The translations under genes were made by a program, and so were the position numbers. 36,482 nucleotides of DNA from a virus, in IMG/VR virus record IMGVR_UViG_3300000970_000005, positions 1-36,482 of that record. The stretch is one strand, 5' to 3'. Shown piece by piece: positions 8,876 through 31,110 of the stretch. Under the pieces are notes generated by a model that saw only the letters and a program-made list of their open reading frames with translations, was not told the origin of the DNA and did not search any database. The stretch's first letter is position 1; each line of letters starts with the position of its first letter.

Positions 8876-9727
8876 ATGACAAGAACACTTGCAATCGTGG
8901 TTGGTCACAACTCTGAACAACAAGGCGCGGTTCGGGGCGATACGGGTGAAACCGAATTTGTTTGGAACAGCGCTTTGGCGCGCATGATAGAAGATGCGGC
9001 GGCTGATTATGACATCAAAGTGAAGACGTTCTTCAGGACGCCGGGTCTTGGATATAAGCGCGAGATTGAACGTGTCTATGACCAAGTTGACTTGTGGAAC
9101 CCTTGGGCAAGTATTGAACTTCACTTCAATTCATTTGCCAAGGAAAGCGCGCGAGGCGCGGAAGTCTTATCAAGCGGAACTTCCCTTTCTTTGCGCCTTG
9201 CGGAAAGCGTCCAGCGTGAAACCGTTGCGGCTTTGGGTGTCCGGGATCGTGGGATCAAAACACGCGCTTCAGATGAACGTGGTGGGCGGTCATTGTTTGC
9301 AGGTAAATCACCAGCGATCTTGGTTGAACCATTCTTTGCATCATCGCCAATGGATCAACGGGCGACAGACGAACGTGATGAAAAGGCAGCGTTAGCTGAT
9401 GCCATACTTCGTGGTGCAGCGGAAGCGTTTGACAGTTTCCCACGAAAAGACTTGACGGAAAGTCGAACTATCACCGCCACAGCAAAGCAACGCCGGGCGC
9501 AAACAGCGGCGGTGCAAACAGGCACGGTTGCAACGCTGATTGCTATTGCCGTTCAAGCAAAAGAAAGCCTTGAACAAATTCCTTTGGTTGGACCGTTCGC
9601 GGAATATCTGCCATTGGCTTCCGCTATGCTCATGGTTCTTGTGGTTGTGCTTCAGGTTTATCAACGTTTCCAATCCGATCAGATTGATGAAGCGCGAATT
9701 GATGATCACGAAAAACAAATCCGATGA
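8876..9727 (+). CDS. N-acetylmuramoyl-L-alanine amidase (Amidase_3-like endolysin) with a hydrophobic C-terminal segment
   Basis: SD GGAAGGA lies upstream. Motifs LAIVVGHNSEQQGAV, SIELHFNSF...ARGAEVL and ILVEPFFASS match the Amidase_3 Zn-ligand layout. The C-terminus YLPLASAMLMVLVVVLQVY looks like a transmembrane segment. Confidence 0.75.
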   Translation: MTRTLAIVVGHNSEQQGAVRGDTGETEFVWNSALARMIEDAAADYDIKVKTFFRTPGLGYKREIERVYDQVDLWNPWASIELHFNSFAKESARGAEVLSSGTSLSLRLAESVQRETVAALGVRDRGIKTRASDERGGRSLFAGKSPAILVEPFFASSPMDQRATDERDEKAALADAILRGAAEAFDSFPRKDLTESRTITATAKQRRAQTAAVQTGTVATLIAIAVQAKESLEQIPLVGPFAEYLPLASAMLMVLVVVLQVYQRFQSDQIDEARIDDHEKQIR

Positions 9728-10087: not shown

Positions 10088-10652
10088 CGAAGATCATCGC
10101 TTGCACAAGGTTGGCGAAAACGTGGATTTTTGGTGGAAGGTAGTGCGTGCAATTGTTGGTTTTGTTGGATTGGTGGGATTGGCGTGGGTTCAGTTTTTAG
10201 GACCGGGGCTCAAATCTGGGATGCAAGAGTTCATCGGGATGCGTGAAGTCATCAATCGCATTGAATTCATTGAGGCATATATGCCAGCGCCGCGCGTTGT
10301 GGAATGGGACGAAACACGTTCACGTCAAAATGGTGATTGCAACACAGACAAGTGTGTATACATCCTGACAGGTTCGCGAACAGAATACGGTGAGACGTGT
10401 GGGCGTCCGACTAGCGCAACACCTTTCCTTAGAACCAAGGATGGGCAAGTTGTTCAAATTGAATATGATGGGTTTACGCCTGTAGAACTTGGGCGTTCCC
10501 CACGCACATTCCAAATTCCTCTTGCAATGCCATCATTCATTCCGCCGGGGGATCATGCGTGGCGAACGCTCATTGAATATCCGACATGTTCGGGAACGCG
10601 CGATGGGGGGCAACGCTTTACTCCTTGGTTTCCGATCACGGTATCAGATTAA
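10077..10652 (+). CDS. Membrane-anchored protein of unknown function, the last gene of the lysis cassette
   Basis: 11-nt overlap with the o-spanin stop. It has one N-terminal TM (VVRAIVGFVGLVGLAWVQFL) and a Cys-containing extracytoplasmic domain. No family was recognised. Confidence 0.55.
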   Translation: MSNSEDHRLHKVGENVDFWWKVVRAIVGFVGLVGLAWVQFLGPGLKSGMQEFIGMREVINRIEFIEAYMPAPRVVEWDETRSRQNGDCNTDKCVYILTGSRTEYGETCGRPTSATPFLRTKDGQVVQIEYDGFTPVELGRSPRTFQIPLAMPSFIPPGDHAWRTLIEYPTCSGTRDGGQRFTPWFPITVSD

Positions 10653-11286: not shown

Positions 11287-11685
11287 TTATTTTTTATTCA
11301 GGTTTTCGCCCGGCTTCACAAGAAGCTGAAGTGATCGGTGCGCACCCTCTTCCGTGCGCTTCACGATCCCCTTGCGCTCTAAAGCGCGAATGACTTGGAC
11401 AGCATTGGACCGATCATGAAAGCCGCATCCTTGCCGGATTTCTTCTAGCGTTGGTGACTTTCGGTTCGCGGTCATAAACTTGAACAAGAATTCCTGAACC
11501 TGCGCTTGGCGACGTGGCAACCCGGTTGCCTTCAGTTCCGGTGCAAAGTCCCACATCATCTGATAAATCGCTTGGGCCAATCGCTTGGCCCTAGCTTCTG
11601 TGTTTGGTTGGCGGTGAAGAATGATGTTATAGGCCGCTTCCACCATGTCAGTTGTTGGTTGGCGGGGTAGAGCCTTACGATCCAT
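11287..11685 (-). CDS. LexA-type winged-helix DNA-binding-domain protein lacking an S24 peptidase domain
   Basis: LPRRQAQVQEFLFKFMTANRKSPTLEEIRQGCGFHDRSNAVQVIRALERKGIVKRTEEGAHRSLQLL follows the LexA N-terminal domain pattern (LT.RQ.EV..FI....P.T..EI....GF.S.NA....L.AL..KG.I......R...LL). The start was chosen at MDRKAL (11685), which overlaps the upstream stop by 11 nt. The ATG at 11646 is an alternative. Confidence 0.7.
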   Translation of the reverse strand: MDRKALPRQPTTDMVEAAYNIILHRQPNTEARAKRLAQAIYQMMWDFAPELKATGLPRRQAQVQEFLFKFMTANRKSPTLEEIRQGCGFHDRSNAVQVIRALERKGIVKRTEEGAHRSLQLLVKPGENLNKK

Positions 11686-12325
11686 CGCCTTGATCCCCGG
11701 TCCCAAACGCTTCTTTAAAATTGGCGTCATTCTCTTGATCAACAGCCTTTGCGGTTTGGGCCAATTCATCCATGATCTTCTTGTCATCCTTGAATAAGTG
11801 GCGGACATCCTTTCCATCATCGCTGTTGTACCATTTACGGAAGGCGTCAGTTCCGCATGACGCCGCGTTCCGTGCGGTTTCGATTGCGTCATCACGCGCG
11901 GCGGGACCGGTTTCCGGTGCGCTGTTTTGTTGCGGTTCAAGCCGATGGATCGTCACAGGTTTTTTGACACCGCGCGTCACAGTCAACGGGATCGTAAGTT
12001 CCTGCGCGTCAATGTGGCTTAGGTGGCTGATGCGGATACCGCCAACAGCTTGCCCACCCCATTTCACTTCTGGGTCATTGAAGAGCGTCATGGATCGCCC
12101 GACATATTGGCTTCCATCTGGCCCCCATGCGCGCACCAGAACCCGGCGCACGGACTTGCACGGTTTGAAGGGCTTGCCGTTATCCCCTTCATAGTTGATC
12201 ACGATGGGCTGATCTTTGCTTTCCAGCATACGAACCCCGGTGATCGTGACTGTTCGGGGTGTGGCGAGGTCATCAGCGTTTAGCTGATCGCTTTTCGCCA
12301 GAATGGTTTTCGAAAGATCGGTCAT
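11675..12325 (-). CDS. Putative ssDNA-binding or annealing partner of the exonuclease (OB-fold-like N-terminus). Function is uncertain.
   Basis: 4-nt overlap with the exonuclease gene. The N-terminal beta-rich region (TVTITGVRMLESKDQPIVINYEGDNGKPFKPCKSVRRVLVRAWG...WGGQAVGGIRI) resembles a common phage family found beside recombination genes. It does not look like RecT, Erf or Bet. Confidence 0.5.
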   Translation of the reverse strand: MTDLSKTILAKSDQLNADDLATPRTVTITGVRMLESKDQPIVINYEGDNGKPFKPCKSVRRVLVRAWGPDGSQYVGRSMTLFNDPEVKWGGQAVGGIRISHLSHIDAQELTIPLTVTRGVKKPVTIHRLEPQQNSAPETGPAARDDAIETARNAASCGTDAFRKWYNSDDGKDVRHLFKDDKKIMDELAQTAKAVDQENDANFKEAFGTGDQGDGS

Positions 12326-13407: not shown

Positions 13408-13668
13408 TTAAACGTTCCTTTTTTCAATGCGGTAATACGTGACGGAACCATATTTCGCGCCATACGCTTGGCCGAATAACTTGGTGTCCAGTTCTTCTTT
13501 TGTGGCGGCTTCTTCCCACATGCGTTCATTCGTGCCTGTTCGGATTGCGGACGCGCCCCACCATCGCTTGTCAGGATCGGGCGCAAGGTTCCCGTCTTCC
13601 TTGGCGCGGTCATGCTGATGATCGCCGCGTTCAAGATCAGCTTCTGTGTTTCCAAACTGATCCCCCAT
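13408..13668 (-). CDS. Hypothetical early protein (86 aa)
   Basis: The start at MGDQFG (13668) makes a TGATG overlap with the upstream stop. The longer listed start at 13707 would overlap the upstream gene. Confidence 0.5.
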   Translation of the reverse strand: MGDQFGNTEADLERGDHQHDRAKEDGNLAPDPDKRWWGASAIRTGTNERMWEEAATKEELDTKLFGQAYGAKYGSVTYYRIEKRNV

Positions 13669-13961: not shown

Positions 13962-13990
13962 TAGATAAATTCACAACTTCACTAAGTCAA
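13962..13990 (-). promoter_or_regulatory. Sigma70-like leftward early promoter candidate (TTGACT-N17-TATCTA)
   Basis: On the minus strand the -35 TTGACT is at 13990..13985 and the -10 TATCTA at 13967..13962, with a 17-nt spacer. It sits in an AT-rich divergent intergenic region about 25 nt upstream of the ATG at 13934. Confidence 0.45.
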
Positions 13991-14011
13991 TCAAAAAAGT
14001 ATTTTCAGATT

Positions 14012-14046
14012 ATCTTTTTGGTATCTTAAAAAGATTACCATAAAAC
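14012..14046 (+). promoter_or_regulatory. Candidate rightward early promoter (TTGGTA-N17-TAAAAC) overlapped by an 8-bp-arm inverted repeat
   Basis: TTGGTA is at 14018-14023 and TAAAAC at 14041-14046. The inverted repeat ATCTTTTT (14012-14019) / AAAAAGAT (14028-14035) spans the -35 region and spacer. The consensus match is weak. Confidence 0.3.
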
Positions 14047-14836: not shown

Positions 14837-14999
14837 TGACAAGGTTTCAATGCAACTACGCCTTCCGGCCGATCTGGATGCGTGGTTTGTGCAAGAAGCA
14901 CATCGCCTTGGTGTGGCGAAACACGCAATGATTGTCATGGCCTTGCAGGACACGCGATCCGAACGCACAGCGAAGGTAGCGACAGATGCGCAGGGGTAA
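14823..14999 (+). CDS. Ribbon-helix-helix (Arc/CopG-like) DNA-binding protein (58 aa)
   Basis: Manual translation gives MAQNNDKVSMQLRLPADLDAWFVQEAHRLGVAKHAMIVMALQD... This shows the beta-strand (VSMQLRLP), helix, G, helix pattern of RHH proteins. It overlaps the next gene by 14 nt. Confidence 0.55.
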   Translation: MAQNNDKVSMQLRLPADLDAWFVQEAHRLGVAKHAMIVMALQDTRSERTAKVATDAQG

Positions 15000-15441
15000 G
15001 CCGGGCGGATATCGGGGCAAGAAATTCGTTTCTGGATCGTCAATAGGCGCGCGATCCAAGAAGGTCCGCATGTGCAATGGTTGTGGTTGTCAGTATCGGC
15101 CGGGGGAAAAGCCTGAAGTCTGTTTGTCATGTGGTGGTTTGGCGTTCACCACGTTTGACAGTGCCGGGGAAGCTGGACGGTGGGCAACGCTATGCCTGTT
15201 AGAAGGTCAAGGCAAGATCACCGATCTGAAGCGTCAAGTGTCTTTCAATCTGATGGCGGCGCGTCGGATTGATGGTCACTTGGTAGAAGCTAAAGTTGGC
15301 CGATACATCGCAGATTTCCAATATGTCCGCGATGGTGAAACCGTGATTGAAGATTACAAGGGCGCTGCGATTGATCCGCTTGCGGCTTGGAAACTTCGAC
15401 ACATGGAAGCGATGGGGCTTCCGGTAAAACTCACAGGATAA
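14986..15441 (+). CDS. DUF1064-family protein (putative recombination or junction endonuclease) with an N-terminal zinc ribbon
   Basis: FDSAGEAGRWATLCLLEGQGKITDLKRQVSFNL...YIADFQYVRDGETVIEDYKG follows the DUF1064 pattern (FDSKKEA.RY..L.LLE..G.I..L..Q..F.L....Y.ADF.Y...G...VED.KG). A CNGCGC...CLSCG motif lies upstream of it. Confidence 0.7.
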   Translation: MRRGKPGGYRGKKFVSGSSIGARSKKVRMCNGCGCQYRPGEKPEVCLSCGGLAFTTFDSAGEAGRWATLCLLEGQGKITDLKRQVSFNLMAARRIDGHLVEAKVGRYIADFQYVRDGETVIEDYKGAAIDPLAAWKLRHMEAMGLPVKLTG

Positions 15442-15453
15442 GGAATTCAAGTC

Positions 15454-15789
15454 ATGGCGAAAGATGAAAAATCAGCCGATCCCATGCATGGATCAAACAT
15501 CAAAAAGCTGAAGGAAGACGCGCAAAGGGGTGTGCAAAAGATCAATCAATTGAAGGATGACCGAACCGCGATCAATGAAGAGATTGCAGCGGTTAAAGCT
15601 GACCTTCAGGCAAAGGGTATTCACAAAAAAGCGTTGGATATGGCGATGACTTACATGAACATGGACCCGGACAAGCGCGAAGGCTTTGACGTCTCCTATG
15701 ACATCGTGCGGGAAGCCATTGGATTGCCTGTCAAGGCGCAAGGCGATCTGTTCGAAGGCAAAAAGGAAGACGGTTCTGATGACGAATGA
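15454..15789 (+). CDS. GapR / DUF2312-like nucleoid-associated DNA-binding protein
   Basis: IKKLKEDAQRGVQKINQLKDDRTAINEEIAAVKADLQAKGIHKKALDMAMTYMNMDPDKREGFDVSYDIVREAIGL parallels Caulobacter GapR (QLKSIIDRVERLE.EK..I.E.IKEVYAEAKGNGFDVKVLKKVV..R..D...R.EEDAILDLYLSAIG). Confidence 0.65.
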   Translation: MAKDEKSADPMHGSNIKKLKEDAQRGVQKINQLKDDRTAINEEIAAVKADLQAKGIHKKALDMAMTYMNMDPDKREGFDVSYDIVREAIGLPVKAQGDLFEGKKEDGSDDE

Positions 15790-16111
15790 ACCTGATTATC
15801 AGGTCAAAGACGCGGCTGAAGATGATAAGGCCGCGTCTCGCCTGAAGAGCAAGACCAGAACCATTGAACAAGCTGAAAAGCGGATTGCCGGGGTGCTAAT
15901 TCAGGTCATGCCAAAACGTGATCTTGTGGTCTTTGAGTGGCTATGCCACGCGACAGGCAAGAAGCCGGGCAAGATCGCTCTGGAAATGATCCGCGCCGCC
16001 ACGATCAAAGAGCGACCAGCTTACCGGGAAGCAATGGGTCAGGGTGGCGGATCATCACAGAACCTTGAAACTTTAAGTGAACGTCTTCCGGTTCACAAAG
16101 TCAAAAACTAG
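15779..16111 (+). CDS. Hypothetical protein (110 aa)
   Basis: The ATG at 15779 overlaps the upstream stop by 11 nt. The listed start at 15686 would lie inside the GapR-like gene. Confidence 0.5.
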   Translation: MTNEPDYQVKDAAEDDKAASRLKSKTRTIEQAEKRIAGVLIQVMPKRDLVVFEWLCHATGKKPGKIALEMIRAATIKERPAYREAMGQGGGSSQNLETLSERLPVHKVKN

Positions 16112-16120
16112 GGCAAACCA

Positions 16121-16957
16121 ATGGACAGCAACGCGCCGGATTGGGTTCCATGGAACGCGGCAAAGTGGATCGCAGGAACGTCAGAAATGGACGGGATCAC
16201 AGAACTTGTGTTCTTCCGGTTGTGCATGATTTCTTACGAACAGGGAAGCCCCGTTGTCACTGGTTCCGACAGGCGCAATTCTATGCGCTGCAAGGTGGAT
16301 GTTGACCAGTTCATTGCCGCACTTGAAGTCTTGCAAGAACTTCAAAAAGTCACACTCACGGATGAAGGGATCATGGTCCTTTCCACAAAGAAGAGGTTGC
16401 AAGACAGTTCGTCAAGGATGATGGCGAGACAACGGGGCGCGGCGATTGCCAGACGCAAGCGTGAATTGAAACAAGAAGGTAGATCATCAGGCGAAATTGA
16501 TCTGATCATCAAGAAAGAATTCCCTGATCATCAAAGCCGTATACAGACAATACAAAACAATACAGACAATACAGAACAAGACACACAGGGGGGTGTGGGG
16601 GGATTATTCGGAGATGAACTTCCTGAAAATCAATCCGATCTGGACGCGGCAAAAGACATTTGGAACGCGATGGCCGGGCAGCACGGACTTTCTAAGGTTC
16701 AAGTTGTCAAAGGAACCCGTCTGAAGAGATTGCGCGCCCGTCTGAAGGATTGCGGTGGTGTGGAAGGATGGAAGGTTGCAGTAAGCAAAGTTCCTGAAAG
16801 CGAATTCCTTCTAGGCAAAGTGAACGGCCGAAAGTGGAAAGCAGATTTTGATTTTCTGTGTCAGGAAAGTTCGTTCATCAAGGTCATGGAAGACCGATAC
16901 AAGAGCGATCCGAACGGTGGCGGATCGCCAACCATGCAAGCGATTAGGGGAAGATGA
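16121..16957 (+). CDS. DUF1376 (YdaU-like) replication-associated protein, a putative initiator or primosome organiser
   Basis: The N-terminus WVPWNAAKWIAGTSEMDGITELVFFRLCMISYEQG fits the DUF1376 pattern (W.P......T..M...E.GAY..L....W). A basic linker carries the repeat module, followed by a C-terminal domain (DIWNAMAGQHGLSKVQVVKGTRLKRLRARL...W...FDFL). Confidence 0.7.
   Translation: MDSNAPDWVPWNAAKWIAGTSEMDGITELVFFRLCMISYEQGSPVVTGSDRRNSMRCKVDVDQFIAALEVLQELQKVTLTDEGIMVLSTKKRLQDSSSRMMARQRGAAIARRKRELKQEGRSSGEIDLIIKKEFPDHQSRIQTIQNNTDNTEQDTQGGVGGLFGDELPENQSDLDAAKDIWNAMAGQHGLSKVQVVKGTRLKRLRARLKDCGGVEGWKVAVSKVPESEFLLGKVNGRKWKADFDFLCQESSFIKVMEDRYKSDPNGGGSPTMQAIRGR
16482..16533 (+). repeat. Three GATCATCA motifs phased at exactly 22 bp inside the DUF1376 gene
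   Basis: Copies lie at 16482-16489, 16504-16511 and 16526-16533. The last two are the full TGATCATCA. Each copy falls in a different codon phase, encoding SS, II and DH. Confidence 0.85.
16541..16602 (+). repeat. Degenerate 9-10 bp tandem iterons (ATACAGACA / ATACAAAACA / ATACAGACA / ATACAGAACA / AGACACACA) followed by GGGGGGTGTGGGGGG
   Basis: Read directly from the sequence, with the G-block at 16588-16602. The segment is homologous to 27614-27674. Confidence 0.8.
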
Positions 16958-18938: not shown

Positions 18939-19328
18939 ATGACTGAAATAGTTCACTTCGATGTTGAAAAGATTGTTGCGGAAGTTGAAAAACACCTCGC
19001 AGAGAACCCCGCATCCGACATGAAAGACCTATCAACGATTGCAATGCGCAATGGTGATAGCGTTCAAATTGCCTTGCTGAAATGGGGTTATGAACAACGC
19101 AACCTTAACATCCCCGCGCCCGTTCTTGCCAGTGCGGCCGCGCAAATATTCGCGACGTTCTTCATGAATTTGTTCACAGATGAAAGCCAAGACCCGGACA
19201 ACATCGCGAAAAGTGCGGATCATTTTTGCGACATGATTTTCCACGCGACAATGGGCTTATCGGAAATGCGCGCATCGGGAACCACAATTTCAACGCCAAT
19301 CAATCCAATCGTGGGGGGCAGAGCATGA
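18939..19328 (+). CDS. Hypothetical protein (129 aa)
   Basis: The ORF is in operon context. No motif was recognised. Confidence 0.55.
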   Translation: MTEIVHFDVEKIVAEVEKHLAENPASDMKDLSTIAMRNGDSVQIALLKWGYEQRNLNIPAPVLASAAAQIFATFFMNLFTDESQDPDNIAKSADHFCDMIFHATMGLSEMRASGTTISTPINPIVGGRA

Positions 19329-19573
19329 AACCAAAAACAGAAGCAATGGCGTTCCGCATCTGGCAATTTGCAGATGCGTCCGGTTGGGATGTCACGGTTG
19401 CCGATGTCGCTAAGCATCTCAATATCAGTTCAGCGCGTGTCCGCCGCATCAATGGCTTGAAAGGTTGGTCCAATCGTTACCGGGTGGACGTGACAAGCAG
19501 ACACGGCCGCGCACAAGCCGGACTTCATCCAGAACACACTGTTCAGCTTGAAGAGGTCATGCCCGATGTCTGA
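19325..19573 (+). CDS. Small putative HTH protein (82 aa)
   Basis: ATGA overlap with the upstream stop. VTVADVAKHLNISSARVRRINGL is helix-turn-helix-like. Confidence 0.5.
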   Translation: MKPKTEAMAFRIWQFADASGWDVTVADVAKHLNISSARVRRINGLKGWSNRYRVDVTSRHGRAQAGLHPEHTVQLEEVMPDV

Positions 19574-19988
19574 AACACCAGAACAAGAACTTGAACGCCT
19601 TCGCTTTCGCCTGTCCGAAGTCATGTATCACCGCGACAACCTGCAAACAGCGCTAAACATCCTTGTTGATCGTGGCGTCGTGCCAATCGAAGAGTTTGTT
19701 CAGATGGGTCTTATCCGGGCAACGCGGGACCAACACAACGAACTTCACCCGGTCAAAATGGACATGACCGATCTGCGCGATCAGCTACATCAAGCCGATC
19801 ATAAACAGGCAACCGTGGCAAAGTTTCGGAACCTGAAGCAAGCGTTCCTTCAGTATCAAAAAGGAACCGCAATCATCCTTAATGATCTGGATAAACTTTG
19901 CCGGGCAAATCATGTCACACCGCATGACATCAGGATGTTGCGCGACATCCGGGATCAAGTGTCCGATCTGATTGGGCGTGAATTGTGA
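19566..19988 (+). CDS. Hypothetical coiled-coil protein (140 aa)
   Basis: The ATG at 19566 overlaps the upstream stop by 8 nt. Confidence 0.55.
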   Translation: MSETPEQELERLRFRLSEVMYHRDNLQTALNILVDRGVVPIEEFVQMGLIRATRDQHNELHPVKMDMTDLRDQLHQADHKQATVAKFRNLKQAFLQYQKGTAIILNDLDKLCRANHVTPHDIRMLRDIRDQVSDLIGREL

Positions 19989-20899
19989 TGGGTTGGCTTG
20001 GCAATCAAATAGGTCCAATAAATTGGGAAACTTTGTATCCTTTTTTGGAACTCAAAATTTCCCGGCCGTTGGATTTCCCGGCCTTGCGTGTTCTGTCATT
20101 TGGTGCAGGCGTCCAATCAACAACCATGTTGCTGATGTCATTGCGTGGTATGTTTGGACCACCACCAGACTTGGCGATCTTCGCAGACACACAGTTTGAA
20201 CCATCGCAAGTGTATGATCATCTTCAGTGGGTTCAAAATGAAGTCGCTAGACTTTCAAATGGACAGGTTACCGTGAATATCGTTAGCGCAGGAAACATCA
20301 AAACTGATCACCTTCAAGGCACAAACACCACAGGCCAACGCTTTGCATCAATGCCGCTTTATACACAGGACGGCAAAGGCATGGGGCGCAGGCAATGCAC
20401 CCGCGAATATAAGATTGAACCGATTGAAAAGGAAATTAGGCGCTTGCTTGGCGTAGCAAAGGGAAAGCGTGTTCCGAAAGGCGTGATGGTTGAGCAATGG
20501 ATTGGCATTTCCACAGATGAAATCCAACGCATAAAAAAGAACAAGAGACCATGGGCGCATAATCGTTTTCCGCTTATCGAAAGAAGGTTGTCGCGTTCTG
20601 ATTGCCGGGTTTGGTTTGAACGTAACTATCCCGGCGTTCCGCTAGTTAAGTCCGCCTGTTCAGCATGTCCATTTCGGGACAATTCCATGTGGCGATGGTT
20701 GAAAAAGAACGCACCAGAAGATTTCGCTGAAGCGGTGGCGTTTGATAAAGCCATAAGAGAAAACGGAACCACCCTAAAAGGAATGCACTCACAACAATTC
20801 GTTCATCGCAGCGGTATCCCGTTAGACCAAGCCGATCTGGATGAAATTGACATAGATGATCTGTTCCAAAACGAATGTGACGGTTATTGCGGCGTGTAG
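19988..20899 (+). CDS. PAPS reductase-family (adenine nucleotide alpha-hydrolase) protein
   Basis: TGATG overlap with the upstream stop. LRVLSFGAGVQSTTMLLM is the PP-loop-like SFSGG.DS equivalent. The C-terminal Cys cluster CSACPFRDNSMW...CDGYCG is typical of phage PAPS-reductase-like proteins. Confidence 0.75.
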   Translation: MGWLGNQIGPINWETLYPFLELKISRPLDFPALRVLSFGAGVQSTTMLLMSLRGMFGPPPDLAIFADTQFEPSQVYDHLQWVQNEVARLSNGQVTVNIVSAGNIKTDHLQGTNTTGQRFASMPLYTQDGKGMGRRQCTREYKIEPIEKEIRRLLGVAKGKRVPKGVMVEQWIGISTDEIQRIKKNKRPWAHNRFPLIERRLSRSDCRVWFERNYPGVPLVKSACSACPFRDNSMWRWLKKNAPEDFAEAVAFDKAIRENGTTLKGMHSQQFVHRSGIPLDQADLDEIDIDDLFQNECDGYCGV

Positions 20900-20967
20900 C
20901 AAAAAGGTTGTGGAATTATGCCATATTTTTTGATGAATAACGGATAAAGTATCAAGGATCGTGATCA

Positions 20968-21261
20968 ATGGCGAACACTAAAGGAAGAGGTCAAGAGCCG
21001 CGCAAGAAGGAAGCGGCAAGCAATTTCGCGGGTATGTTCGATGGGTCCAAAGAAAAACCCACACCTGAAGAGGTTGTTGTGCGCGTCATGCACGGGGATG
21101 GTGACAACGTGATCACGGATCGCCAACTTGAAGCGGCAAAGATGCTGTTACCCTATCGCCTTCCCAAACTGGCAACCGTGGAAGCCCATGTGGCCACGGA
21201 AGAAATGACGCATGAAGAGTGGATCGCGTCACTGGAAGAGGATGAAGAGGATGATGTTTAA
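20968..21261 (+). CDS. Hypothetical protein, a weak terminase small-subunit-like candidate
   Basis: AAGGA lies upstream. The AAKMLLPYRLPKLATVE segment resembles the A.K.LLPY.HPKL motif I recall in some small terminase subunits. The tail is acidic. This rests on a single motif. Confidence 0.5.
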   Translation: MANTKGRGQEPRKKEAASNFAGMFDGSKEKPTPEEVVVRVMHGDGDNVITDRQLEAAKMLLPYRLPKLATVEAHVATEEMTHEEWIASLEEDEEDDV

Positions 21262-21321
21262 ACGTGTTTCATGGATCGTGGTTGTCTGTCTTTCCATAGC
21301 GTTTTGGATTGTGGTTTTGGC

Positions 21322-21537
21322 ATGAATTCACTGTGGCAGAACCCTATCAACATCCGGCCATGTCCGTTTTGCGGTAACGTAAAGCCTGACATTTCATGCA
21401 ACGCGGATATCGTTTGGGCAGTATCATGCTCATGTGGTGTGATCGCGTTCCCATCAGCGGTGCGATCTGAAACCGTCATAGCTTGGAACACCCGATCAAT
21501 CGACAGAACAGAAGTAACATCTGAAAGGGATGTATGA
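21322..21537 (+). CDS. Lar-family restriction-alleviation-like protein (71 aa)
   Basis: IRPCPFCGNVKP....VSCSCGV.......ETVIAWNTR matches the Lar family layout (PCPFCG...C..CG......eAi.aWN.R). The start was taken at the ATG at 21322. Confidence 0.6.
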   Translation: MNSLWQNPINIRPCPFCGNVKPDISCNADIVWAVSCSCGVIAFPSAVRSETVIAWNTRSIDRTEVTSERDV

Positions 21538-21815
21538 TGCAAAAAGCGTGGTTTGTATTGGAACGAATTCACGGCGGGGAATATCATCCCGTCATCTACT
21601 ATGGCGACAAACCCACAGGGCAGCGGACGGACGCGCCGAACAGGTTGTTCAAGGATGAACCCAAACTGATCCCGGACAAGTTCATGATCAACGGGAAGCC
21701 GATCCGTCTTGATCAGATCGCGGATCATTTCTATCCGCCCGAACATAAGGCGAAACCAATGCAATCGTCAGGACACGCTAAAGCAACCGTTCAACTTCCA
21801 ATGTTCCGGCTTTGA
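21534..21815 (+). CDS. Hypothetical protein (93 aa)
   Basis: ATGA overlap with the Lar-like gene. Confidence 0.5.
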   Translation: MMQKAWFVLERIHGGEYHPVIYYGDKPTGQRTDAPNRLFKDEPKLIPDKFMINGKPIRLDQIADHFYPPEHKAKPMQSSGHAKATVQLPMFRL

Positions 21816-21868
21816 CCGGATAGACCTTTTCCGACATGATGCGCCCACACATCACAAGGGCTTGCATC

Positions 21869-22984
21869 ATGTTGGGAATAAATATCCGCACCACACAGAA
21901 TGAAGGATCACTTGGTATTCTCGGACAAGTGGTCACGGTCAATGATGACAACACGTTGACCATCGAAAACAACCAAGGCAATTCATTCACAATCGACACG
22001 ACACCGGACAGCTATGACGGAACCTATTCTGTCACACAGGCTGAACTGGATGCGGGTCCAGTGGCTTTGGTCGCAACGGCTTTGTCAGGTGACGTTGATC
22101 CTGAAGCTGGCGAGACGCTTTCCATTGTTCCGCCTCTCTTCGCTTATGATCCCGATCTTGGGGATGTGGGTGATGTCACCTATACCGCCAACGGAACGAA
22201 CGCGGTGGATGTGACGGACCCGGCGAACCCCACTTTGCTTATTGACGCGGCTGATGCGGGGGTGACGCTCACGGTCACGGCAAGCCTGACACAGACGGGC
22301 GTGGGAACGACTAACAGCGTGTCCAATGGTGTCACTATCGAAGATTTACCCGCGCCATCCATCACAGTCACACGTTTGTTTGCGGATGCGTTGGCCGATG
22401 ATGGGGGATTTGACACGGAAGGTGAATGGAATGGTGTTGACCTAAGCGCCCATGCGTCTGGTGATCTGATCCTTGCGTTTGTTGGACCAACAGACAACTT
22501 CACCGCCATGACTTTCGATGATGGGACAGGTGCGGTTGCCATGAACCTTGAGGCAACAACAACAGGAAACAACGGTTCACGTTGTCAGTTGTTTTCGCAC
22601 ACCCTGACATCGGCAGGTACAGCGCTAAATGATTTTCTTGCTACACCCGGCGTGAACGCCATTAACCGTTATATGGAACTATTTATCGTGCGCGGCGGGG
22701 TTATTGCAGATGTGCAGCAAGCGGCAGATAGCGGCGGAACGATAAATCCGTTGTCTGTTGACGTTTCAATCACCGATACGATTAACGAGATTGTCGCGTT
22801 TGTGTGTGGCTTTGATTGGGACACCGAAACACTGACAGGTGTGACGGCCAATGCCAAAACAGCAACCACTAATGTGGACATTATCACCGGGCGCGCATCC
22901 AATGTCGCAGGACCAACGCACACTGTTTCCTTTGATCAGTCACCTACACAACGCAAGGGTGCAATCATTGTTAATTTGGAGTAA
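21869..22984 (+). CDS. Structural-looking Thr/Asp/Gly-rich protein, a possible fiber or receptor-binding accessory
   Basis: The ATG at 21869 has AAGGG 9 nt upstream, and 21836 is an alternative. The composition is typical of fibers. It lies directly upstream of a spike-like gene. Confidence 0.55.
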   Translation: MLGINIRTTQNEGSLGILGQVVTVNDDNTLTIENNQGNSFTIDTTPDSYDGTYSVTQAELDAGPVALVATALSGDVDPEAGETLSIVPPLFAYDPDLGDVGDVTYTANGTNAVDVTDPANPTLLIDAADAGVTLTVTASLTQTGVGTTNSVSNGVTIEDLPAPSITVTRLFADALADDGGFDTEGEWNGVDLSAHASGDLILAFVGPTDNFTAMTFDDGTGAVAMNLEATTTGNNGSRCQLFSHTLTSAGTALNDFLATPGVNAINRYMELFIVRGGVIADVQQAADSGGTINPLSVDVSITDTINEIVAFVCGFDWDTETLTGVTANAKTATTNVDIITGRASNVAGPTHTVSFDQSPTQRKGAIIVNLE

Positions 22985-22989
22985 ACACC

Positions 22990-25266
22990 ATGAGCAAGAT
23001 CAACTTTCTTTCAGCGGCGCTTTTGGGCGCGGTAGTCACAATCAACGGTACATCAACCCAAGAATGGGGCGGAATACAGGCGACACCGGGAACGTCTGTC
23101 ACTATCGAATTTGAGCGATCCAATTACTACGCCGCACCAGAAGGTTTCAACTTCTACACCAGCGTGTCAGGTTTCGACACCGCAAGTGAGACCGATCTTG
23201 CGATCTATGATCCATCCTTTCACGATAAGGTTTATTTTTGGGATCATGGTGATGATTATGATTTCACCGCGCCACAGCATATTCCATCGCAGTTTATGAA
23301 AAGCCGGGATGCAATGGGACCAATCAGCGTCCACACCTATCGCAGCGCCGGAAACTATCGACCAAGGTGCATTGTCTATGAAAAATCATCCGGCAAGATC
23401 GGTGTTGGTTATCTCAACATTGGCGGCGCGTCTGAAGACACCCCGGCCGTTGCTGATCCTGATGTTGTCTTTGCCGGGGCAAACACGGTTTATGTTGATC
23501 CTGATGCGGTCTACAGCGGTGCGCCATCGGGCGCGCAAGAAAGCACCAGCTTAAACAGCGCTTACAATTTAGTTGCTGCATCTGAAAACTTGATGCGCAT
23601 TGTCCTATCCGCCGGGAAAACGCATGAAGTCACGTCTGAAATCGGATGGCGTCCATCATCGGCAACACGTGGACGGGTATTCAGGATTGAAAGCGATCCA
23701 TCAAATCCGGCAACCGTAGAACCAAGCGCGTCATTCCCTGATAATCAAGTGATGATCCGGGATCAGTCGAACCGGGATAATATGGCTAATCGTGAAAGTT
23801 GCCTATTCGGTGTGCGCTTCATTGGTCCATGGGACAGCACAACCGAAACCGGAAAGGCGATTTATATGATCAATCATACCATCTATTCATGTCAGTATGG
23901 TTTGGTTGAACAGTGTCATTTTTCCGGTTGGGCGATTGCGGTGAACTCACAGTTAAGCGGCGGCGTGAACCCCGGAAATCTTGTCAACTATGTGGTGACA
24001 GACACGGTTGTGACGAACTGGCAGAACTTTGGCTTTTATGGTCTGGATTATACGATCTTTGGTTTTGCGGGATCGCGGATCATGCAAGATGTGGACGCGC
24101 TAAGCGGTGGAAACAAATACATTGTTGGGTATACCGCATTTTACAACAACCATGGACCATATCGCATCCCTTACGTCTATATGGGATGTTTTCTGTCATG
24201 CGATCTGTTCAATCGGGTGGGATGGTCTGGTCAAGGTTCCATTGATGCAATCCAGCCTTGCGCGCGGATCAATTCGTCATGCAACGCAGGTGCGCGCTTC
24301 AATATGTGGGGATGTGTTCTTGAAGGTGGATATGTGGTTTTCCATGCCTTCCCTGCAAACAACAACCTCACGATCAACGTGGTCAACTACGTGCTTGAAG
24401 CCAATTTCTTCCTTATGGACTTTGAAACCACGGTTCCGATTGAAACGGCTTATGGGGGATGGTCAATCCGCAACAACTTCGCGGTTGTGCCGAACGTCCA
24501 AAAGGACATATCGGTATATGGCGAAGTTTGGGGCGGTCACTTTGGTGAATTTGTGCGGGTGCGTGGGGATCAGTTGAACACATACACATCGGAATGTATG
24601 GCCGCGCCAATCATTGTGGAAAACAATACGATCATCAATCTTTTGGCGGATGTGAATGACAGCCCGGCCGGGGGAACTATTGTAGCTGTGGCGCAGAATG
24701 GATCGAATACGTTCACCGCGATCACAGATCGCAACAACATCATTCATGAGCCTAACAGAACGGTTCCCAATACCCCGGCCGCGCCATTGTCTTCAGCGCA
24801 GTTGTTCACGCCAAGAATGAAGGCGTATGTTAAAACCAGCGCAAGGTTCGTGTTTGCTTCCACAACGGTTCTTGATGGTGGAATGATCATGGTTGATCTG
24901 ACAACGGCTTTTGGTGGAAGCAACATTTCGGCGGTTGCTGATATTGATGTTGCTTCAGGCAAGACGCACGTGGAAGCTGGTGGAACGTTCCATTTGGTGG
25001 ATGTGATCAGTGTTGTTGGTGACACCTTAACTGTTCAGAACAACACAGGGGCAACCATTTCAAACGCGACAGCGTTGACGGTTCCCCTTGCCAATCACAT
25101 CACGTTGACGGGAAGCGAGACCCCGGCCGGATCGGCTCACTTGTGGGAACTTGCGGCGGGATCACCGGGCATTGGTGGCGGTGTGACTGATGGTCCGCTT
25201 TATGACTTCAATGGGGATGATCGCAGTTCACCGCACGATCTGGGCGCGATCCTATACGCTTCCTGA
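22990..25266 (+). CDS. Tail spike / putative depolymerase-like protein (758 aa)
   Basis: GGAG lies 8 nt upstream. A PKD-like signature (HTYRSAGNYRPRCIVYE) is near the N-terminus. Recurrent N-rich turns (IRNNFAV, ENNTIINLL, DRNNIIHEPN) are compatible with a parallel beta-helix. Confidence 0.65.
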   Translation: MSKINFLSAALLGAVVTINGTSTQEWGGIQATPGTSVTIEFERSNYYAAPEGFNFYTSVSGFDTASETDLAIYDPSFHDKVYFWDHGDDYDFTAPQHIPSQFMKSRDAMGPISVHTYRSAGNYRPRCIVYEKSSGKIGVGYLNIGGASEDTPAVADPDVVFAGANTVYVDPDAVYSGAPSGAQESTSLNSAYNLVAASENLMRIVLSAGKTHEVTSEIGWRPSSATRGRVFRIESDPSNPATVEPSASFPDNQVMIRDQSNRDNMANRESCLFGVRFIGPWDSTTETGKAIYMINHTIYSCQYGLVEQCHFSGWAIAVNSQLSGGVNPGNLVNYVVTDTVVTNWQNFGFYGLDYTIFGFAGSRIMQDVDALSGGNKYIVGYTAFYNNHGPYRIPYVYMGCFLSCDLFNRVGWSGQGSIDAIQPCARINSSCNAGARFNMWGCVLEGGYVVFHAFPANNNLTINVVNYVLEANFFLMDFETTVPIETAYGGWSIRNNFAVVPNVQKDISVYGEVWGGHFGEFVRVRGDQLNTYTSECMAAPIIVENNTIINLLADVNDSPAGGTIVAVAQNGSNTFTAITDRNNIIHEPNRTVPNTPAAPLSSAQLFTPRMKAYVKTSARFVFASTTVLDGGMIMVDLTTAFGGSNISAVADIDVASGKTHVEAGGTFHLVDVISVVGDTLTVQNNTGATISNATALTVPLANHITLTGSETPAGSAHLWELAAGSPGIGGGVTDGPLYDFNGDDRSSPHDLGAILYAS

Positions 25267-25585: not shown

Positions 25586-25845
25586 TGAACGCCGCGTCAA
25601 TCGAAAAGATCAAGGATGATTTCCGGGCGTGTTTAACGGTTCATGAAGTGGACCTTACCGCCCGTAAACATGCGCGCCCGGTGGTTGAAATGGGGAAGAC
25701 CAAAGCAACCCGGCCGCAATCCATACAAATCAAAAACCTTGCCAACTATATGCGGACTATGATCCGCCAAGGCATTATCCCCGGACATCAGCAACATGAC
25801 CAATCCCAAGAGAACAGCGGCAATCCGCAAGCGCCTAAAGGATGA
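25585..25845 (+). CDS. Hypothetical basic protein (86 aa) directly upstream of terL, a positional candidate for the small terminase
   Basis: TGATG overlap with the upstream stop. Its last 50 nt overlap the terL ORF in another frame. Position is the only evidence. Confidence 0.4.
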   Translation: MNAASIEKIKDDFRACLTVHEVDLTARKHARPVVEMGKTKATRPQSIQIKNLANYMRTMIRQGIIPGHQQHDQSQENSGNPQAPKG

Positions 25846-27433
25846 TTTCGAATATTTCGCGCCGCGATGTCTGAAAATCCTTACAAAGCCGAACGAACAT
25901 GGAAAGGTTGAAATCCTTCCGTTTAAGTTCAACGCTGCGCAAAAGCACATCCACAAACGGATAGAGCAACAAAGATCAGAATTTGGCTATGTCCGGGCGA
26001 TCATCCTGAAGGGAAGACAGCAAGGCGCATCCACCTATACGGAAGGGCGCTTCTACTGGAAGACCACACAGAACAAGGGGGAAAAAACCTACATCCTGAC
26101 ACACTCAAAAGAGGCTACGGACAACCTGTTTGGGATGGTTGATCGTTATCACACCAATGCACCGATCCACGTGCGGCCGTATGTCGGGAAAGACAACGCT
26201 AAGGAACTGGTTTTTGACAAGCTGGATAGTCGCTATCAGGTGGCAACGGCCGGCGCAAAAGGTGCGGGGCGATCCGCAACGCTGACCAACGTTCACGGTT
26301 CAGAAGTCGCCTTTTGGGAAAACGCTGAAAAACACTTGGGCGGGATGCTTCAGGCGGTTCCATTGGCGCAGGGAACGGAAGTTGTCCTTGAAAGCACCGC
26401 CAACGGGATCGGCAATGTATTTCACAAACAATGGCAAATGGCGGAACGTGGTGAAAGTGACTTCATCGCCATCTTTGTTCCATGGTTTTGGCAGACAGAA
26501 TATAGGCGCACACCACCACAAGACTTCCAAGTTTCGATGGACCCAGAAAGCGTTCCAGATGGGGAACTGACGGAAGCCGAATATCAAGAACTTTACAATC
26601 TGGATGATGGTCAAATCTTCTGGCGTCGGATGAAAATCCGGGAACTTGGCGGCGGGGATGAAGGCTTTGCGTTATTCCAACAGGAGTATCCAGCCACACC
26701 AGATGAAGCATTCCAATCATCACAGGCGGGGAACAGTTTGATCAAGCGCAAGCATGTCCTGAAGGCGCGGAAATCGACTGTAACAAGCCATGGTCAATTG
26801 ATCATTGGTGTTGATCCCGGCGGCGAAGGCGAAGGTGGCGATCCAACAGGTATAATCAGGCGACGTGGGCGGCGCATGTTCGGACACCAGTTGATCACCA
26901 AGCTGAACACAATGCAAATCGCGGCGTTGATTGCGCGGATCGTCAAGGATGAACGTCCACACCGGGTCTTTGTTGATGTTGGTGGGTTAGGGACCGGGAT
27001 TGTTGACAGGTGCCTTGAAATGCCTGTGTGTCGCGGTGTGGTGATCCCTGTGAACTTTGGGGAAGCTGCGATGGACCCGGACAAGTATAGGAACCGCCGG
27101 GCGGAAATGCACTGGACATTGAAGGAATGGTTGGAAGACCCCGGCGGCGCGAACATTCCTGATGAAGATGTGATCCAAGCTGATTTCTTGGCGTCAGTGA
27201 TCAAGGCGGGTGACAGCCTTCAGCGGCGTCAATTGATGTCTAAAGAATGGATGAAGTCAAAAGGCATTGCATCACCAAACCTTGCGGACGCGGGTGCGTT
27301 GACATTTGCCATCCCGGTTGCGGCCGTGGATGCTATGGTTGGTCTATCGGCTGATGAATACGATCCATTAAGTCCAGATCAGACGTTCCATCAGTCCAGT
27401 GTGTCGGATTTTGATCCTTTGGATGGATATTGA
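25796..27433 (+). CDS. terL: Terminase large subunit
   Basis: A Walker A-like segment is AIILKGRQQGASTY and a Walker B / catalytic Glu-like segment is LTNVHGSEVAFW. An ESTANG coupling motif is present, followed by a C-terminal nuclease-type region (IGVDPGG...VFVDVGGLG). Confidence 0.85.
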   Translation: MTNPKRTAAIRKRLKDDFEYFAPRCLKILTKPNEHGKVEILPFKFNAAQKHIHKRIEQQRSEFGYVRAIILKGRQQGASTYTEGRFYWKTTQNKGEKTYILTHSKEATDNLFGMVDRYHTNAPIHVRPYVGKDNAKELVFDKLDSRYQVATAGAKGAGRSATLTNVHGSEVAFWENAEKHLGGMLQAVPLAQGTEVVLESTANGIGNVFHKQWQMAERGESDFIAIFVPWFWQTEYRRTPPQDFQVSMDPESVPDGELTEAEYQELYNLDDGQIFWRRMKIRELGGGDEGFALFQQEYPATPDEAFQSSQAGNSLIKRKHVLKARKSTVTSHGQLIIGVDPGGEGEGGDPTGIIRRRGRRMFGHQLITKLNTMQIAALIARIVKDERPHRVFVDVGGLGTGIVDRCLEMPVCRGVVIPVNFGEAAMDPDKYRNRRAEMHWTLKEWLEDPGGANIPDEDVIQADFLASVIKAGDSLQRRQLMSKEWMKSKGIASPNLADAGALTFAIPVAAVDAMVGLSADEYDPLSPDQTFHQSSVSDFDPLDGY

Positions 27434-27505
27434 TCATCAGGTCTTAAATCTCTGATCATCAATGTGATTATTTCTGATCATCAGAGGATAATTGATTGAT
27501 CATCA
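27431..27505 (+). repeat. Four TGATCATCA 9-mers phased at exactly 22 bp, the first overlapping the terL stop codon
   Basis: Copies lie at 27431-27439, 27453-27461, 27475-27483 and 27497-27505. Confidence 0.9.
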
Positions 27506-27575
27506 AAAACCACGAAAAATGGTTATTTTTGTGCTTAAAAAGTGTGCATGATCCGAAATTATCCAATGAAAATTC

Positions 27576-27606
27576 TGATGATCAAGGCGAAACGCTCTGA
27601 TGATCA
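27576..27606 (+). repeat. Two TGATGATCA 9-mers 22 bp apart (reverse complement of TGATCATCA)
   Basis: Copies lie at 27576-27584 and 27598-27606. The second begins the block homologous to 16525 onward. Confidence 0.85.
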
Positions 27607-27613
27607 AAGCCGT

Positions 27614-27674
27614 ATACAATACAGACAATACAATACAGACAATACAATACAGACAGACAAAGGGGGTGTGGGGG
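27614..27674 (+). repeat. Perfect 14-bp tandem repeat ATACAATACAGACA x3 followed by GACAAA and GGGGGTGTGGGGG
   Basis: The units are 27614-27627, 27628-27641 and 27642-27655. The G-block is at 27662-27674. Confidence 0.9.
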
Positions 27675-27676
27675 AA

Positions 27677-27832
27677 ATGACGTTCAAAGAAATGATCAGG
27701 ATTTACAGCCGGGTGATTTGGTTCACGATCCGGGAAGCGATGATTGACGTTTGGTTGATCTTCTGGCCGATGTTTTCGGTGATCGGGTTGATAATGGTTA
27801 TCATCCGGTTTTGGTCGTGGGTGTTGTTCTGA
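27677..27832 (+). CDS. Small hydrophobic protein (51 aa), a possible holin-like or membrane protein
   Basis: The product is MTFKEMIRIYSRVIWFTIREAMIDVWLIFWPMFSVIGLIMVIIRFWSWVLF. The ATG comes just after the G-block. The upstream in-frame extension to 27542 reads through the repeat module and I treat it as non-coding, without certainty. Confidence 0.4.
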   Translation: MTFKEMIRIYSRVIWFTIREAMIDVWLIFWPMFSVIGLIMVIIRFWSWVLF

Positions 27833-28344
27833 TGTTCATTCCAGACAGAAGATGCTTCACGGGCTATGTGGTTTTTGTGGGTTCGGATCACAGACAGTTT
27901 TGGCGGATATTCACCAAACGGGGATGGCGTCATTGCTTTGTGATCATGTCCCATCCATCGCCAAACGGCTTGTTCGGCGGATCGTGCCTGATCGTCAATC
28001 AGCGCTTGGATCATCTGTTCGTGGATCAGGTGGATGTCACGGCCGCGTTCGCAGCACAACACGCGCTGAAAGAGGGTGCAACGTGCGTGATAAAAATCAG
28101 GATTGACCAAAAATCCGCACCCGTTTACGTTCCACGGGGAATGATCACTTGCGTTTCGATTGTGAAATCAGTTCTTGGTTTGCGTGGGTGGTACATCTGG
28201 ACGCCGCAACATTTGGCGCGCTGGATGCTCAAAAATGGTGGCGAAATTGTGAGGCTTGAAGATGGGCGAATTGATCGGGATGAAAAAGCCCAAAGTGAGC
28301 AAGGCAACCCAACAAGCGCAACGTCGCCAAGCGAAATCCATTGA
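27832..28344 (+). CDS. Hypothetical protein (170 aa)
   Basis: TGATG overlap with the upstream stop. The conserved-looking segments GWRHCFVI and TCVSIVKSVLGL...W.TP..LARW are not assignable. The antisense ORF 27703..28110 is a competing model. Confidence 0.45.
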   Translation: MFIPDRRCFTGYVVFVGSDHRQFWRIFTKRGWRHCFVIMSHPSPNGLFGGSCLIVNQRLDHLFVDQVDVTAAFAAQHALKEGATCVIKIRIDQKSAPVYVPRGMITCVSIVKSVLGLRGWYIWTPQHLARWMLKNGGEIVRLEDGRIDRDEKAQSEQGNPTSATSPSEIH

Positions 28345-28477
28345 TGATCAAACAGCGGACGCCGCAAAGGAAGCTGGTTCCAGAAATCGCATCATGCGGA
28401 AGCGGCAATCATCAGGTGGGAACCTGTTCTCCCGTGGTGGCGCAGTTGGTGTTTCAAAAGACACGTTGGGCGGCTGA
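28262..28477 (+). CDS. Small basic protein upstream of the portal (71 aa)
   Basis: The ATG at 28262 has GAGG 7 nt upstream. It is Lys/Arg/Gln-rich and ends in ...GNLFSRGG...SKDTLGG, a pattern I recall from small proteins beside podovirus portal genes. It overlaps 27832..28344 by 83 nt, so the start is uncertain. Confidence 0.45.
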   Translation: MGELIGMKKPKVSKATQQAQRRQAKSIDDQTADAAKEAGSRNRIMRKRQSSGGNLFSRGGAVGVSKDTLGG

Positions 28478-31084: not shown

Positions 31085-31110
31085 ACATCAGCAACAAGGA
31101 TCATAAAAAA

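Follow-up and report, generated by a model that had tools for sequence, protein, structure and literature searches.

Phage lambda and the Shiga toxin (Stx) phages have their replication origin, iterons together with an AT-rich tract, midway along gene O, whose protein product gains residues where additional iterons occur (PMC7466680). In phage SPP1, oriL is located inside gene 38 and oriR in a non-coding segment interrupting the late genes; each comprises repeats and an unwinding element, both are bound by gp38, and oriR has been proposed to stall replication forks and thereby bring about the switch from theta to sigma replication, helped by a phage exonuclease, an annealing protein and a resolvase (PMC6316719). 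Here we describe a composite DNA element that occurs twice in the IMG/VR virus record IMGVR_UViG_3300000970_000005 (the whole stretch of 36,482 nucleotides (nt), hereafter the window), once within the coding sequence of a putative replication initiator and once in the gap between the genes for the large terminase subunit (TerL) and the portal, and we compare it with related loci and genomes fetched for this purpose (L0 numbers). The element is probably the cognate DNA site of an O-like/DUF1376-type initiator, present in two copies per genome; judging from these comparisons, it is most likely the replication origin of the phage, laid out much like the two origins of SPP1.

The recurrent unit of the element is a box, an 11-bp palindrome whose centre is free; its consensus, derived from 56 boxes of ten phages, is C-TGAT-N-ATCA-R. 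As TGATCATCA is the reverse complement of TGATGATCA, the two are one and the same site. Phased arrays of boxes, at spacings of 22 and 12 bp, occur solely in the initiator linker and in the TerL-portal gap, and each array is followed by an A+C-rich tract of low stability and then by a G block (Table 1). Within the gene, copies of GATCATCA precede AAGCCGTATACA, a tract of ATACAGACA-type repeats and GGGGGGTGTGGGGGG, while in the gap the boxes at 27576 and 27598 precede AAGCCGTATACA, three units of ATACAATACAGACA and GGGGGTGTGGGGG. As in lambda, the repeats have dyad symmetry, and the 22-bp phasing is present in the coding and the non-coding copy alike. The clustering of the motif is far above chance: TGATNATCA was observed 16 times against 1.36 expected genome-wide, a count reached in none of 100 shuffles, and 8 of the 16 occurrences lie inside the two clusters. 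Exact matches to GGGGGTGTGGGGG start at 16589 and 27662 only. The contig-end overlap aside, the genome has no dispersed direct repeat longer than the one formed by the two copies (16501-16578 versus 27574-27651; 78 nt, 78% identity), which reaches 102 nt at 79% identity when gaps are allowed.

Several of these features had been noticed from the letters alone. The original prediction placed GATCATCA at 16482, 16504 and 16526, reading SS, II and DH in the frame of the open reading frame (ORF) 16121-16957, and GGGGGGTGTGGGGGG at 16588-16602, and all of these coordinates and readings hold. It also noted that CTGATCATCAAAGCCGTATACA (16524-16545) is one base off 27597-27618; this is correct, and the C/G difference represents the free centre of a box and not an inversion. 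The order of parts it described at the second locus is likewise what we find, the second locus being richer, with six boxes and a 70-bp spacer. The '9-10 bp iterons' of that account do correspond to a tract, but this is better described as strand-asymmetric, with a repeat unit that differs between phages; over 16 copies its composition is 54% A, 23% C, 14% G and 9% T. Both elements rank among the 0.2-0.4% least stable 40-bp segments of the genome, and the in-gene tract contains its most A+C-rich 50-bp segment. When 80-bp segments are ranked, 27427-27506 and 16494-16573 are the second and third least stable. Inspection by eye of the AT-rich spacer yielded only imperfect look-alikes of DnaA boxes and IHF sites.

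Table 1. Coordinates of the element copies and of the genes discussed (window positions unless another locus is named)
Feature	Position	Strand	Remarks
In-gene element	16481-16602		Initiator interdomain linker
Weak box AGATCATCA	16481..16489	.	One mismatch to consensus; 22 bp upstream of box 1; common only to L029
In-gene box 1 TGATCATCA	16503..16511	.	Codons CTG ATC ATC A, L-I-I
In-gene box 2 TGATCATCA	16525..16533	.	Codons ccT GAT CAT CAa, P-D-H-Q
In-gene tract, ATACAGACA-type repeats	16534..16587	+	A+C-rich, strand-asymmetric, low stability; encodes disordered T/D/N/Q-rich linker
In-gene G block GGGGGGTGTGGGGGG	16588..16602	+	Encodes GGVGG
Second-copy locus	27431-27675		Between TerL and portal; six boxes
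Four TGATCATCA boxes (27431, 27453, 27475, 27497)	27431..27505	.	Exact 22-bp spacing; first overlaps TerL stop codon
AT-rich spacer, 70 bp	27506..27575	.	Up to 73% A+T per 60-bp segment; this phage only
Two TGATGATCA boxes (27576, 27598)	27576..27606	.	22-bp spacing; homologous to in-gene boxes 1 and 2
Intergenic tract, (ATACAATACAGACA) x3	27607..27661	+	A+C-rich
Intergenic G block GGGGGTGTGGGGG	27662..27674	+	2 nt before ATG of 51-aa (amino acid) hydrophobic ORF 27677-27832
Replication initiator gene, 278 aa	16121..16957	+	PHROG matches and AlphaFold (AF2) model
Downstream gene, 189 aa	16954..17523	+	Overlaps initiator stop codon; candidate partner or loader
TerL	25796..27433	+	PHROG 2 terminase large subunit, 8.5e-26; directly upstream of second element copy
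Portal, T7-like	28477-30123
Scaffold	31066-32097
Capsid	32303-33196
Amidase	8876-9727
Leftward block	about 11.3-13.1 kb		LexA-type DNA-binding protein and YqaJ exonuclease
Rightward early block	14986-16957		DUF1064 protein, GapR-like protein, then initiator
L041 element, in-gene / second copy	8702-8782 / 16801-16881		TGCCACGGCA / CTCCCGGCT and CCCACA repeats; second copy inverted; TerL 62% to window
L043 element, in-gene / second copy	5155-5219 / 13532-13595		AAGCC-AACCAGAACCAGAACCA; CCAGAA repeats; second copy direct; TerL 60% to window

Three minor observations concern the boxes themselves. Exact TGATNATCA also occurs outside the clusters, at 7209, 9700, 11086, 15793, 23739, 28342, 29867 and 36058; eight scattered sites against the 1.36 expected for the whole genome give a Poisson p of about 9e-5, a value in which codon bias (GAT GAT CA, ATC ATC A) is uncontrolled, and these sites may be a compositional effect or weak extra binding sites. 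A stretch of 26 nt in the portal gene (29005-29030) is 85% identical to 16490-16515 (GGCaAgATTGATCTGATCAgCAgGAA) and includes a one-mismatch box, probably by chance. A short GTATAC or GTATA(A/C)A motif stands where the last box meets the tract (27612-27618 and 16539-16545 in the window, with equivalents in L022, L028, L030 and L032); L032, despite its otherwise unrelated boxes, has this motif twice in its intergenic copy.

Conservation within the gene was examined in 14 homologues of the initiator (34-53% identity), several of them on contigs of about 35 kb. In the protein alignment, an island, EIDLIIS.EFPDDQ, stands in the variable central region and is followed by a T/D/N/K/Q-rich stretch and then by GG.GG. 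The original prediction had held that an excess of synonymous constraint among homologous genes would favour a cis-acting element, and this comparison was made by aligning ten initiator genes, about 50% identical, codon by codon (276 columns), with DNA taken from the fetched relatives. The excess is there: synonymous sites elsewhere are saturated (mean entropy at third codon positions 1.39 bits), the third base is invariant in 7 of the 276 columns, and 6 of these 7 lie in the element. The wobble bases specified by the motif are invariant in 4 of 4 columns, against 3 of the 272 others (Fisher p = 1.5e-7). Box 1 (cTG ATn ATC a) has two wobble bases that are the same in all ten genes, the G ending the Leu/Gln codon and the C ending the second Ile codon. 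Its free centre, the third base of the first Ile codon, varies more than any other wobble (1.92 bits) and gives Met in one phage. In box 2 (xcT GAT nAy CAx) the preceding residue may be P, S or A, yet its third base is always T; the Asp codon is GAT in 10 of 10 genes, and the following residue is D, N or H (NAY) in nine, the tenth, in L025, having GTT (Val) and a degenerate box. At each of the two Gly columns of the G block, 9 of 10 genes use GGG, whereas the codons for conserved Gly elsewhere are mostly GGC. Extra boxes at 12-bp spacing in some relatives appear in the protein as SDDQ or SGDQ units. Selection in the element reaches beyond the encoded protein to the DNA itself. The part of the linker encoded by tract and G block is disordered (predicted local distance difference test, pLDDT, below 50) and can tolerate a sequence imposed in this way.

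Both regions are readable in seven window-type genomes (L019, L021, L022, L027, L028, L029 and the window). Each of the seven has exactly two clusters of boxes, one in the initiator linker and the other in the gap that follows TerL, and in all seven the same succession of boxes, tract and G block recurs in the non-coding DNA of that gap. Spacing in the non-coding copies is 22 bp in 13 of 24 intervals and 12 bp in 7. After array and tract comes a G block or one of its variants, GGGGGAGTRTGAGGGGG or a CCCCCTAAAGGGGG hairpin with GAGGGGG. The two copies of a genome have peculiarities in common: AAGCCGTATACA in the window, CTACCGnGTAACAAGACAGACA in L019, ACGTTGTATAAAGACAA together with the hairpin version of the G block in L028, and in L029 a (GC)n block instead of the G block. 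Indeed, copies are more alike within than between genomes, the true pairing being the best of 5040 permutations of the matrix of similarities between in-gene and intergenic copies. Gene conversion, joint selection for the same initiator, or both would keep the copies alike.

Individual genomes depart from this layout in detail. The intergenic A+C tract and (GC)n block of L029 (7590-7660) are inverted relative to the boxes, and a GCGCGCGCG block is located ahead of the intergenic tract of L021 (9140-9160). Small ORFs homologous to the 51-aa ORF of the window come after the element in most relatives, none being detected in L028 or L043. In L035, a T7-like relative whose TerL is 47% identical, no repeat was found between the region downstream of TerL and the 10 kb upstream, so that either the dual arrangement is not universal or the initiator of L035 lies further away.

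What the element belongs to can be judged from three members of the same group with a divergent initiator allele. The TerL proteins of L032, L041 and L043 are 60-65% identical to that of the window, within the range of the window-type relatives (L032, at 65%, equals L021 and L029), and the portals of L041 and L043 are 63-65% identical to it; L032 is also homologous to the window in DUF1064, GapR, orf141, orf197 and a small membrane ORF. The initiators of all three are of the DUF1376 type but only 22% identical to that of the window. BLASTP (E <= 1e-3) found in L032 no counterpart of the window initiator or of the gene following it, the remote match of the initiators having come by direct pairwise comparison. 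There are no window-type boxes in L032. A linker segment of 70 nt (4511-4580), which aligns to the position of the window element, is repeated after TerL at 11679-11748, and carries the palindrome GGAGCAC-N-GCTCC and TCCATT repeats. When each initiator gene was systematically compared by blastn with the rest of its own locus, 6 of the 7 window-type genomes were recovered (L029 was missed), along with the same arrangement in L041 and L043, whose second copies are situated between TerL and the portal. In at least ten genomes, then, and with four unrelated sequences, a linker segment made of one or more palindromic boxes and G-poor short tandem repeats is present twice; and a second copy with the same repeats and tract occupies a non-coding late-gene gap, as in SPP1, in seven window-type and three L032-type genomes. 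Because the elements change completely while the similarity of TerL and portal stays, the element follows the allele of the initiator and does not follow the genes for terminase and head. That both copies change with a 22%-identical initiator, the terminase and head genes being equally similar, is indirect support for binding of the initiator to the gene that encodes it.

The initiator itself matches PHROG families of DnaD-like helicase loaders (6e-20) and O-like replication initiation proteins (3e-16), as well as primosomal protein families, the last being common to the window and L032 initiators. Its AlphaFold model comprises a winged-helix-like N-terminal domain (residues 1-86, distantly DUF1376), a long helix (87-118), a short helix holding box 1 (123-133), a disordered stretch encoded by the tract and the G block (139-168) and a helical, O-like/DnaD-like C-terminal domain (171-256). 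The boxes are at residues 121-138 and the tract and G block within 139-168; they are thus placed between the folded domains as in lambda, and the model agrees with the linker position given in the original prediction. The 'DUF1376' label used there is upheld in part. Against Pfam DUF1376 (PF07120) the window protein scores 17 bits (E = 0.0079), below the gathering threshold of 30.1 bits, and does not qualify as a member on this score. Remote homology to genuine DUF1376 proteins is nonetheless detectable: the L032 initiator, which scores 63 bits on PF07120, aligns with the window protein at a pairwise E of 4e-4 (22% identity over 203 aligned positions, covering the N-terminal domain and linker), and 7 of the 15 sequences of the initiator alignment, the window protein included, match PF07120 at E < 0.01 (best 1.6e-5). 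Foldseek returned only weak winged-helix matches to the model (MarR/GntR/FNR-type, E about 0.1), and a profile search of PDB sequences with the initiator found nothing. A distant genuine DUF1376 gene on a 92-kb contig (L039, NCBI assembly GCA_030012865.1) carries 4.5 TCACCT repeats in its linker (10460-10505), with a purine-rich run after these tandem repeats; genes for DUF1376 initiators may in general contain repeats.

In a working model, the winged-helix domain at the N-terminus would bind the palindromic boxes as a dimer, and the 22-bp phasing, equal to two helical turns, would set these on one face of the DNA. The resulting nucleoprotein complex could then melt the neighbouring low-stability, strand-asymmetric A+C-rich tract, with the G-rich block as its boundary, and the C-terminal O/DnaD-like domain, perhaps together with the downstream 189-aa protein, would bring in the host helicase and replisome. 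The in-gene copy would correspond to ori-lambda in gene O and the TerL-portal copy to SPP1 oriR, the latter acting either as a second firing origin or as an initiator-bound site of fork stalling that aids the switch from theta replication to concatemers. As far as computation goes, the comparisons support the reading of the in-gene element as an origin that the original prediction had put forward.

Some points weigh against this interpretation. At either copy the assignment as an origin is based on sequence comparison and predicted structure. The tract, at about 65-72% A+T and rich in A+C, is not a classical AT-rich unwinding element, and the least stable 80-bp segment of the genome lies elsewhere, in the early divergent region (13965-14044). 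Box 1 falls in the confidently modelled short helix, so that conservation of 'DLII' may be partly at the protein level. The G block, in its intergenic version, may double as a ribosome-binding site. The gene for the 189-aa protein changes along with the initiator, and its product could be the binder instead; and since the small terminase subunit was not recognised, covariation of the element with that protein is formally possible.

A more far-reaching proposal can also be framed, which we regard as possible but doubtful. The two copies would form an obligatory, co-evolving pair, with the TerL-portal copy acting as an initiator-bound checkpoint (a fork barrier, loop or handcuff) that couples the switch from theta replication to concatemers with packaging. 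They would be kept identical by gene conversion, and the arrangement would be a previously unnoticed general design rule of a widespread group of marine podophages not yet in culture, valid for initiator alleles whose specificities are unrelated. In a bolder variant, the G-poor short tandem repeats and the G block would constitute a new unwinding or priming module, working for example via strand-specific single-strand binding or R-loop- or G-quadruplex-assisted initiation.

Among the alternatives, the best placed, though unlikely, is that another DNA-binding protein of the replication module, for instance the 189-aa product, binds the boxes, and that these serve regulation (autoregulation of the initiator operon, or late-gene timing) or form a handcuffing or titration pair and not a firing origin. 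The exchange of the downstream gene along with the initiator in L032 speaks for such a binder, 11-bp palindromes are typical sites of dimeric regulators, and the eight TGATNATCA sites scattered over the genome, against 1.36 expected, could fit a wider binding role. Yet boxes are absent from the early divergent promoter region (13.9-14.05 kb), and neither a sigma-70-like promoter on the + strand nor an intrinsic terminator was found around the intergenic copy (27200-27900). A pure operator, moreover, has no need of the low-stability tract and G block that are kept at both sites, and the initiator linker is the classical position of an origin.

Less probable still is a pac-like packaging site bound by the small terminase subunit, with the array adjoining TerL as the working site. 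The second copy does follow the terminase gene directly in every genome, phased repeats are frequent in pac and cos binding sites, and the circular assembly is compatible with headful packaging. Phage P1 pac contains hexameric TGATCA/G sites, four plus three, and the four-plus-two boxes of the window recall it, as TGATCA-containing repeats in two groups around a spacer near the packaging genes. However, a packaging site gives no rationale for a full copy inside the initiator gene, and the element changes wholly with the initiator while TerL is still 60-65% identical; the element thus covaries with the initiator, not with the terminase as a pac site should. Phages with the same boxes do not have the small ORFs upstream of TerL in common, and the orientation of the intergenic copy is reversed in L041 and, in part, in L029. 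A reading of the boxes as Dam-methylated sites of the P1 pac kind was rejected, the box centre in relatives often being A or T, including TGGTTACCA variants, so that the GATC core is not conserved.

We find it very improbable that the element has no function in cis, with the peptide EIDLIISKEFPDDQ a protein motif and the intergenic copy a decaying partial duplication of the gene. This peptide is the best-conserved island of the central region and box 1 lies in a helix predicted with high confidence, but the invariant wobble bases coincide with varying amino acids (P/S/A-D-D/N/H), the non-coding copy keeps boxes, phasing, tract and G block across genomes whose synonymous sites are saturated, and the dual placement recurs with four unrelated sequences. 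Equally slight is the chance of a signal at the RNA level, either a CA-rich translational enhancer with a G-rich Shine-Dalgarno sequence or a nut/put-like antitermination signal used twice on the rightward transcript, as might be imagined from the presence of both copies on the coding strand and of the intergenic G block just ahead of the next start codon, given that the window has no match to Rfam families, that no consistent in-frame start follows the in-gene G block, and that the tract and GC block are inverted in L029 and the whole element in L041. Two specific candidates of this kind were discarded: RNA pairing between boxes, whose central bases do not covary by inspection, and an internal translation start after the in-gene G block.

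The phage resembles SPP1 in having one copy in the initiator gene and a second in an intergenic gap of late morphogenesis genes, and in encoding an exonuclease, an annealing protein and a resolvase-type function; the copies are about 13 kb apart on the circular map of SPP1, 11 kb apart in the window and 5-8 kb apart in relatives. It differs in its initiator family (DUF1376/O-like), its T7-like head module and its probably alphaproteobacterial host. The boxes are 11-bp palindromes and not direct AB boxes, the tract is A+C-rich and not simply AT-rich, and a G block is present; no helicase or loader of the gp40/gp39 type was found, and the element of the window is known from sequence only. With ori-lambda it has in common phased dyad-symmetric repeats, followed in the window by a tract that may melt easily, a position mid-gene between the DNA-binding and helicase-recruiting domains (here predicted) of an initiator with an 'O-like' PHROG match, and a repeat number that varies between relatives and lengthens the protein, by 13 aa in Stx phages and by SDDQ/SGDQ units in the present group. 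Lambda, in contrast, has one origin and no second copy, and iterons of about 19 bp, and in the window phage there is no homologue of a P-type loader and no sign of transcriptional activation. Two separated clusters of initiator repeats per replicon, thought to loop or handcuff, are known from satellite phage P4 (ori/crr) and plasmid P1 (oriR/incA); their second cluster has no unwinding part and neither cluster lies in an initiator linker, whereas both copies of the window keep the full succession of parts. By analogy, this phage, from an uncultured group, would be a further case of known kinds, pairing an in-gene origin of the lambda type with a second copy of the SPP1 type. To our knowledge, the dual arrangement of an in-gene and a late-region origin has been experimentally documented so far only for SPP1.

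For a phage group without a cultured relative, sequence alone thus yields a probable origin and a probable recognition site of its initiator (C-TGAT-N-ATCA-R), and the gene offers a natural case in which a conserved peptide, EIDLIIS.EFPDDQ, is dictated by a signal in the DNA. The persistence of the dual arrangement across at least ten genomes and four unrelated sequences suggests that the second copy is functionally required, and provides a comparative handle on the unproven idea, put forward for SPP1, that a late origin copy triggers the switch from theta to sigma replication. It also suggests a rule for annotation, namely to check whether the initiator linker recurs close to the packaging genes.

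The window is a complete, circularly assembled genome whose ends overlap by 47 nt (1-47 and 36436-36482). This overlap falls in a 12-nt tandem repeat, (GCTGGTGCGGCG)n, so that the real number of repeats, and with it the length of the genome, is uncertain. Pfam- and PHROG-type family scans recognised no integrase, polymerase, primase or helicase among the window proteins. Recombination genes are present: a YqaJ or DUF3799 exonuclease, a neighbouring putative annealing protein and the resolvase-like DUF1064 protein, whose L032 homologue matches a PHROG family annotated as Holliday junction resolvase. The product of the 189-aa downstream gene has no Pfam or PHROG match; the gene is kept in all window-type relatives, and its BLASTP counterpart is absent from L032. 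Cumulative GC skew rises almost monotonically with the coding strand, and is uninformative on the origin.

No close cultured relative was found by megablast of 14-29 kb or by tblastn of the initiator against 50,697 phage records, the latter giving matches to the C-terminal domain only, in Clostridium and Roseburia phages. The literature on DUF1376 and on second phage origins held nothing about these phages. One relative was found within a Sulfitobacter metagenome-assembled genome, and because of this relative and the presence of GapR, a Rhodobacterales host is indicated; the group probably consists of uncultured marine podophages infecting Rhodobacterales.

Between the replication and packaging modules of the window (19985-25266) there is a PAPS-reductase-like gene (PHROG 424) together with two large ORFs (382 and 758 aa) that have no Pfam or PHROG match. 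The distance from initiator to TerL is 8.8 kb in the window and about 3.6 kb in L019, and close relatives have no room for this block, which may be an accessory DNA-modification or defence island. L019, for its part, carries between portal and scaffold (19202-19435) a gene of 77 aa with an Acb2/Tad1 hairpin domain, of the anti-CBASS/anti-Thoeris sponge family.

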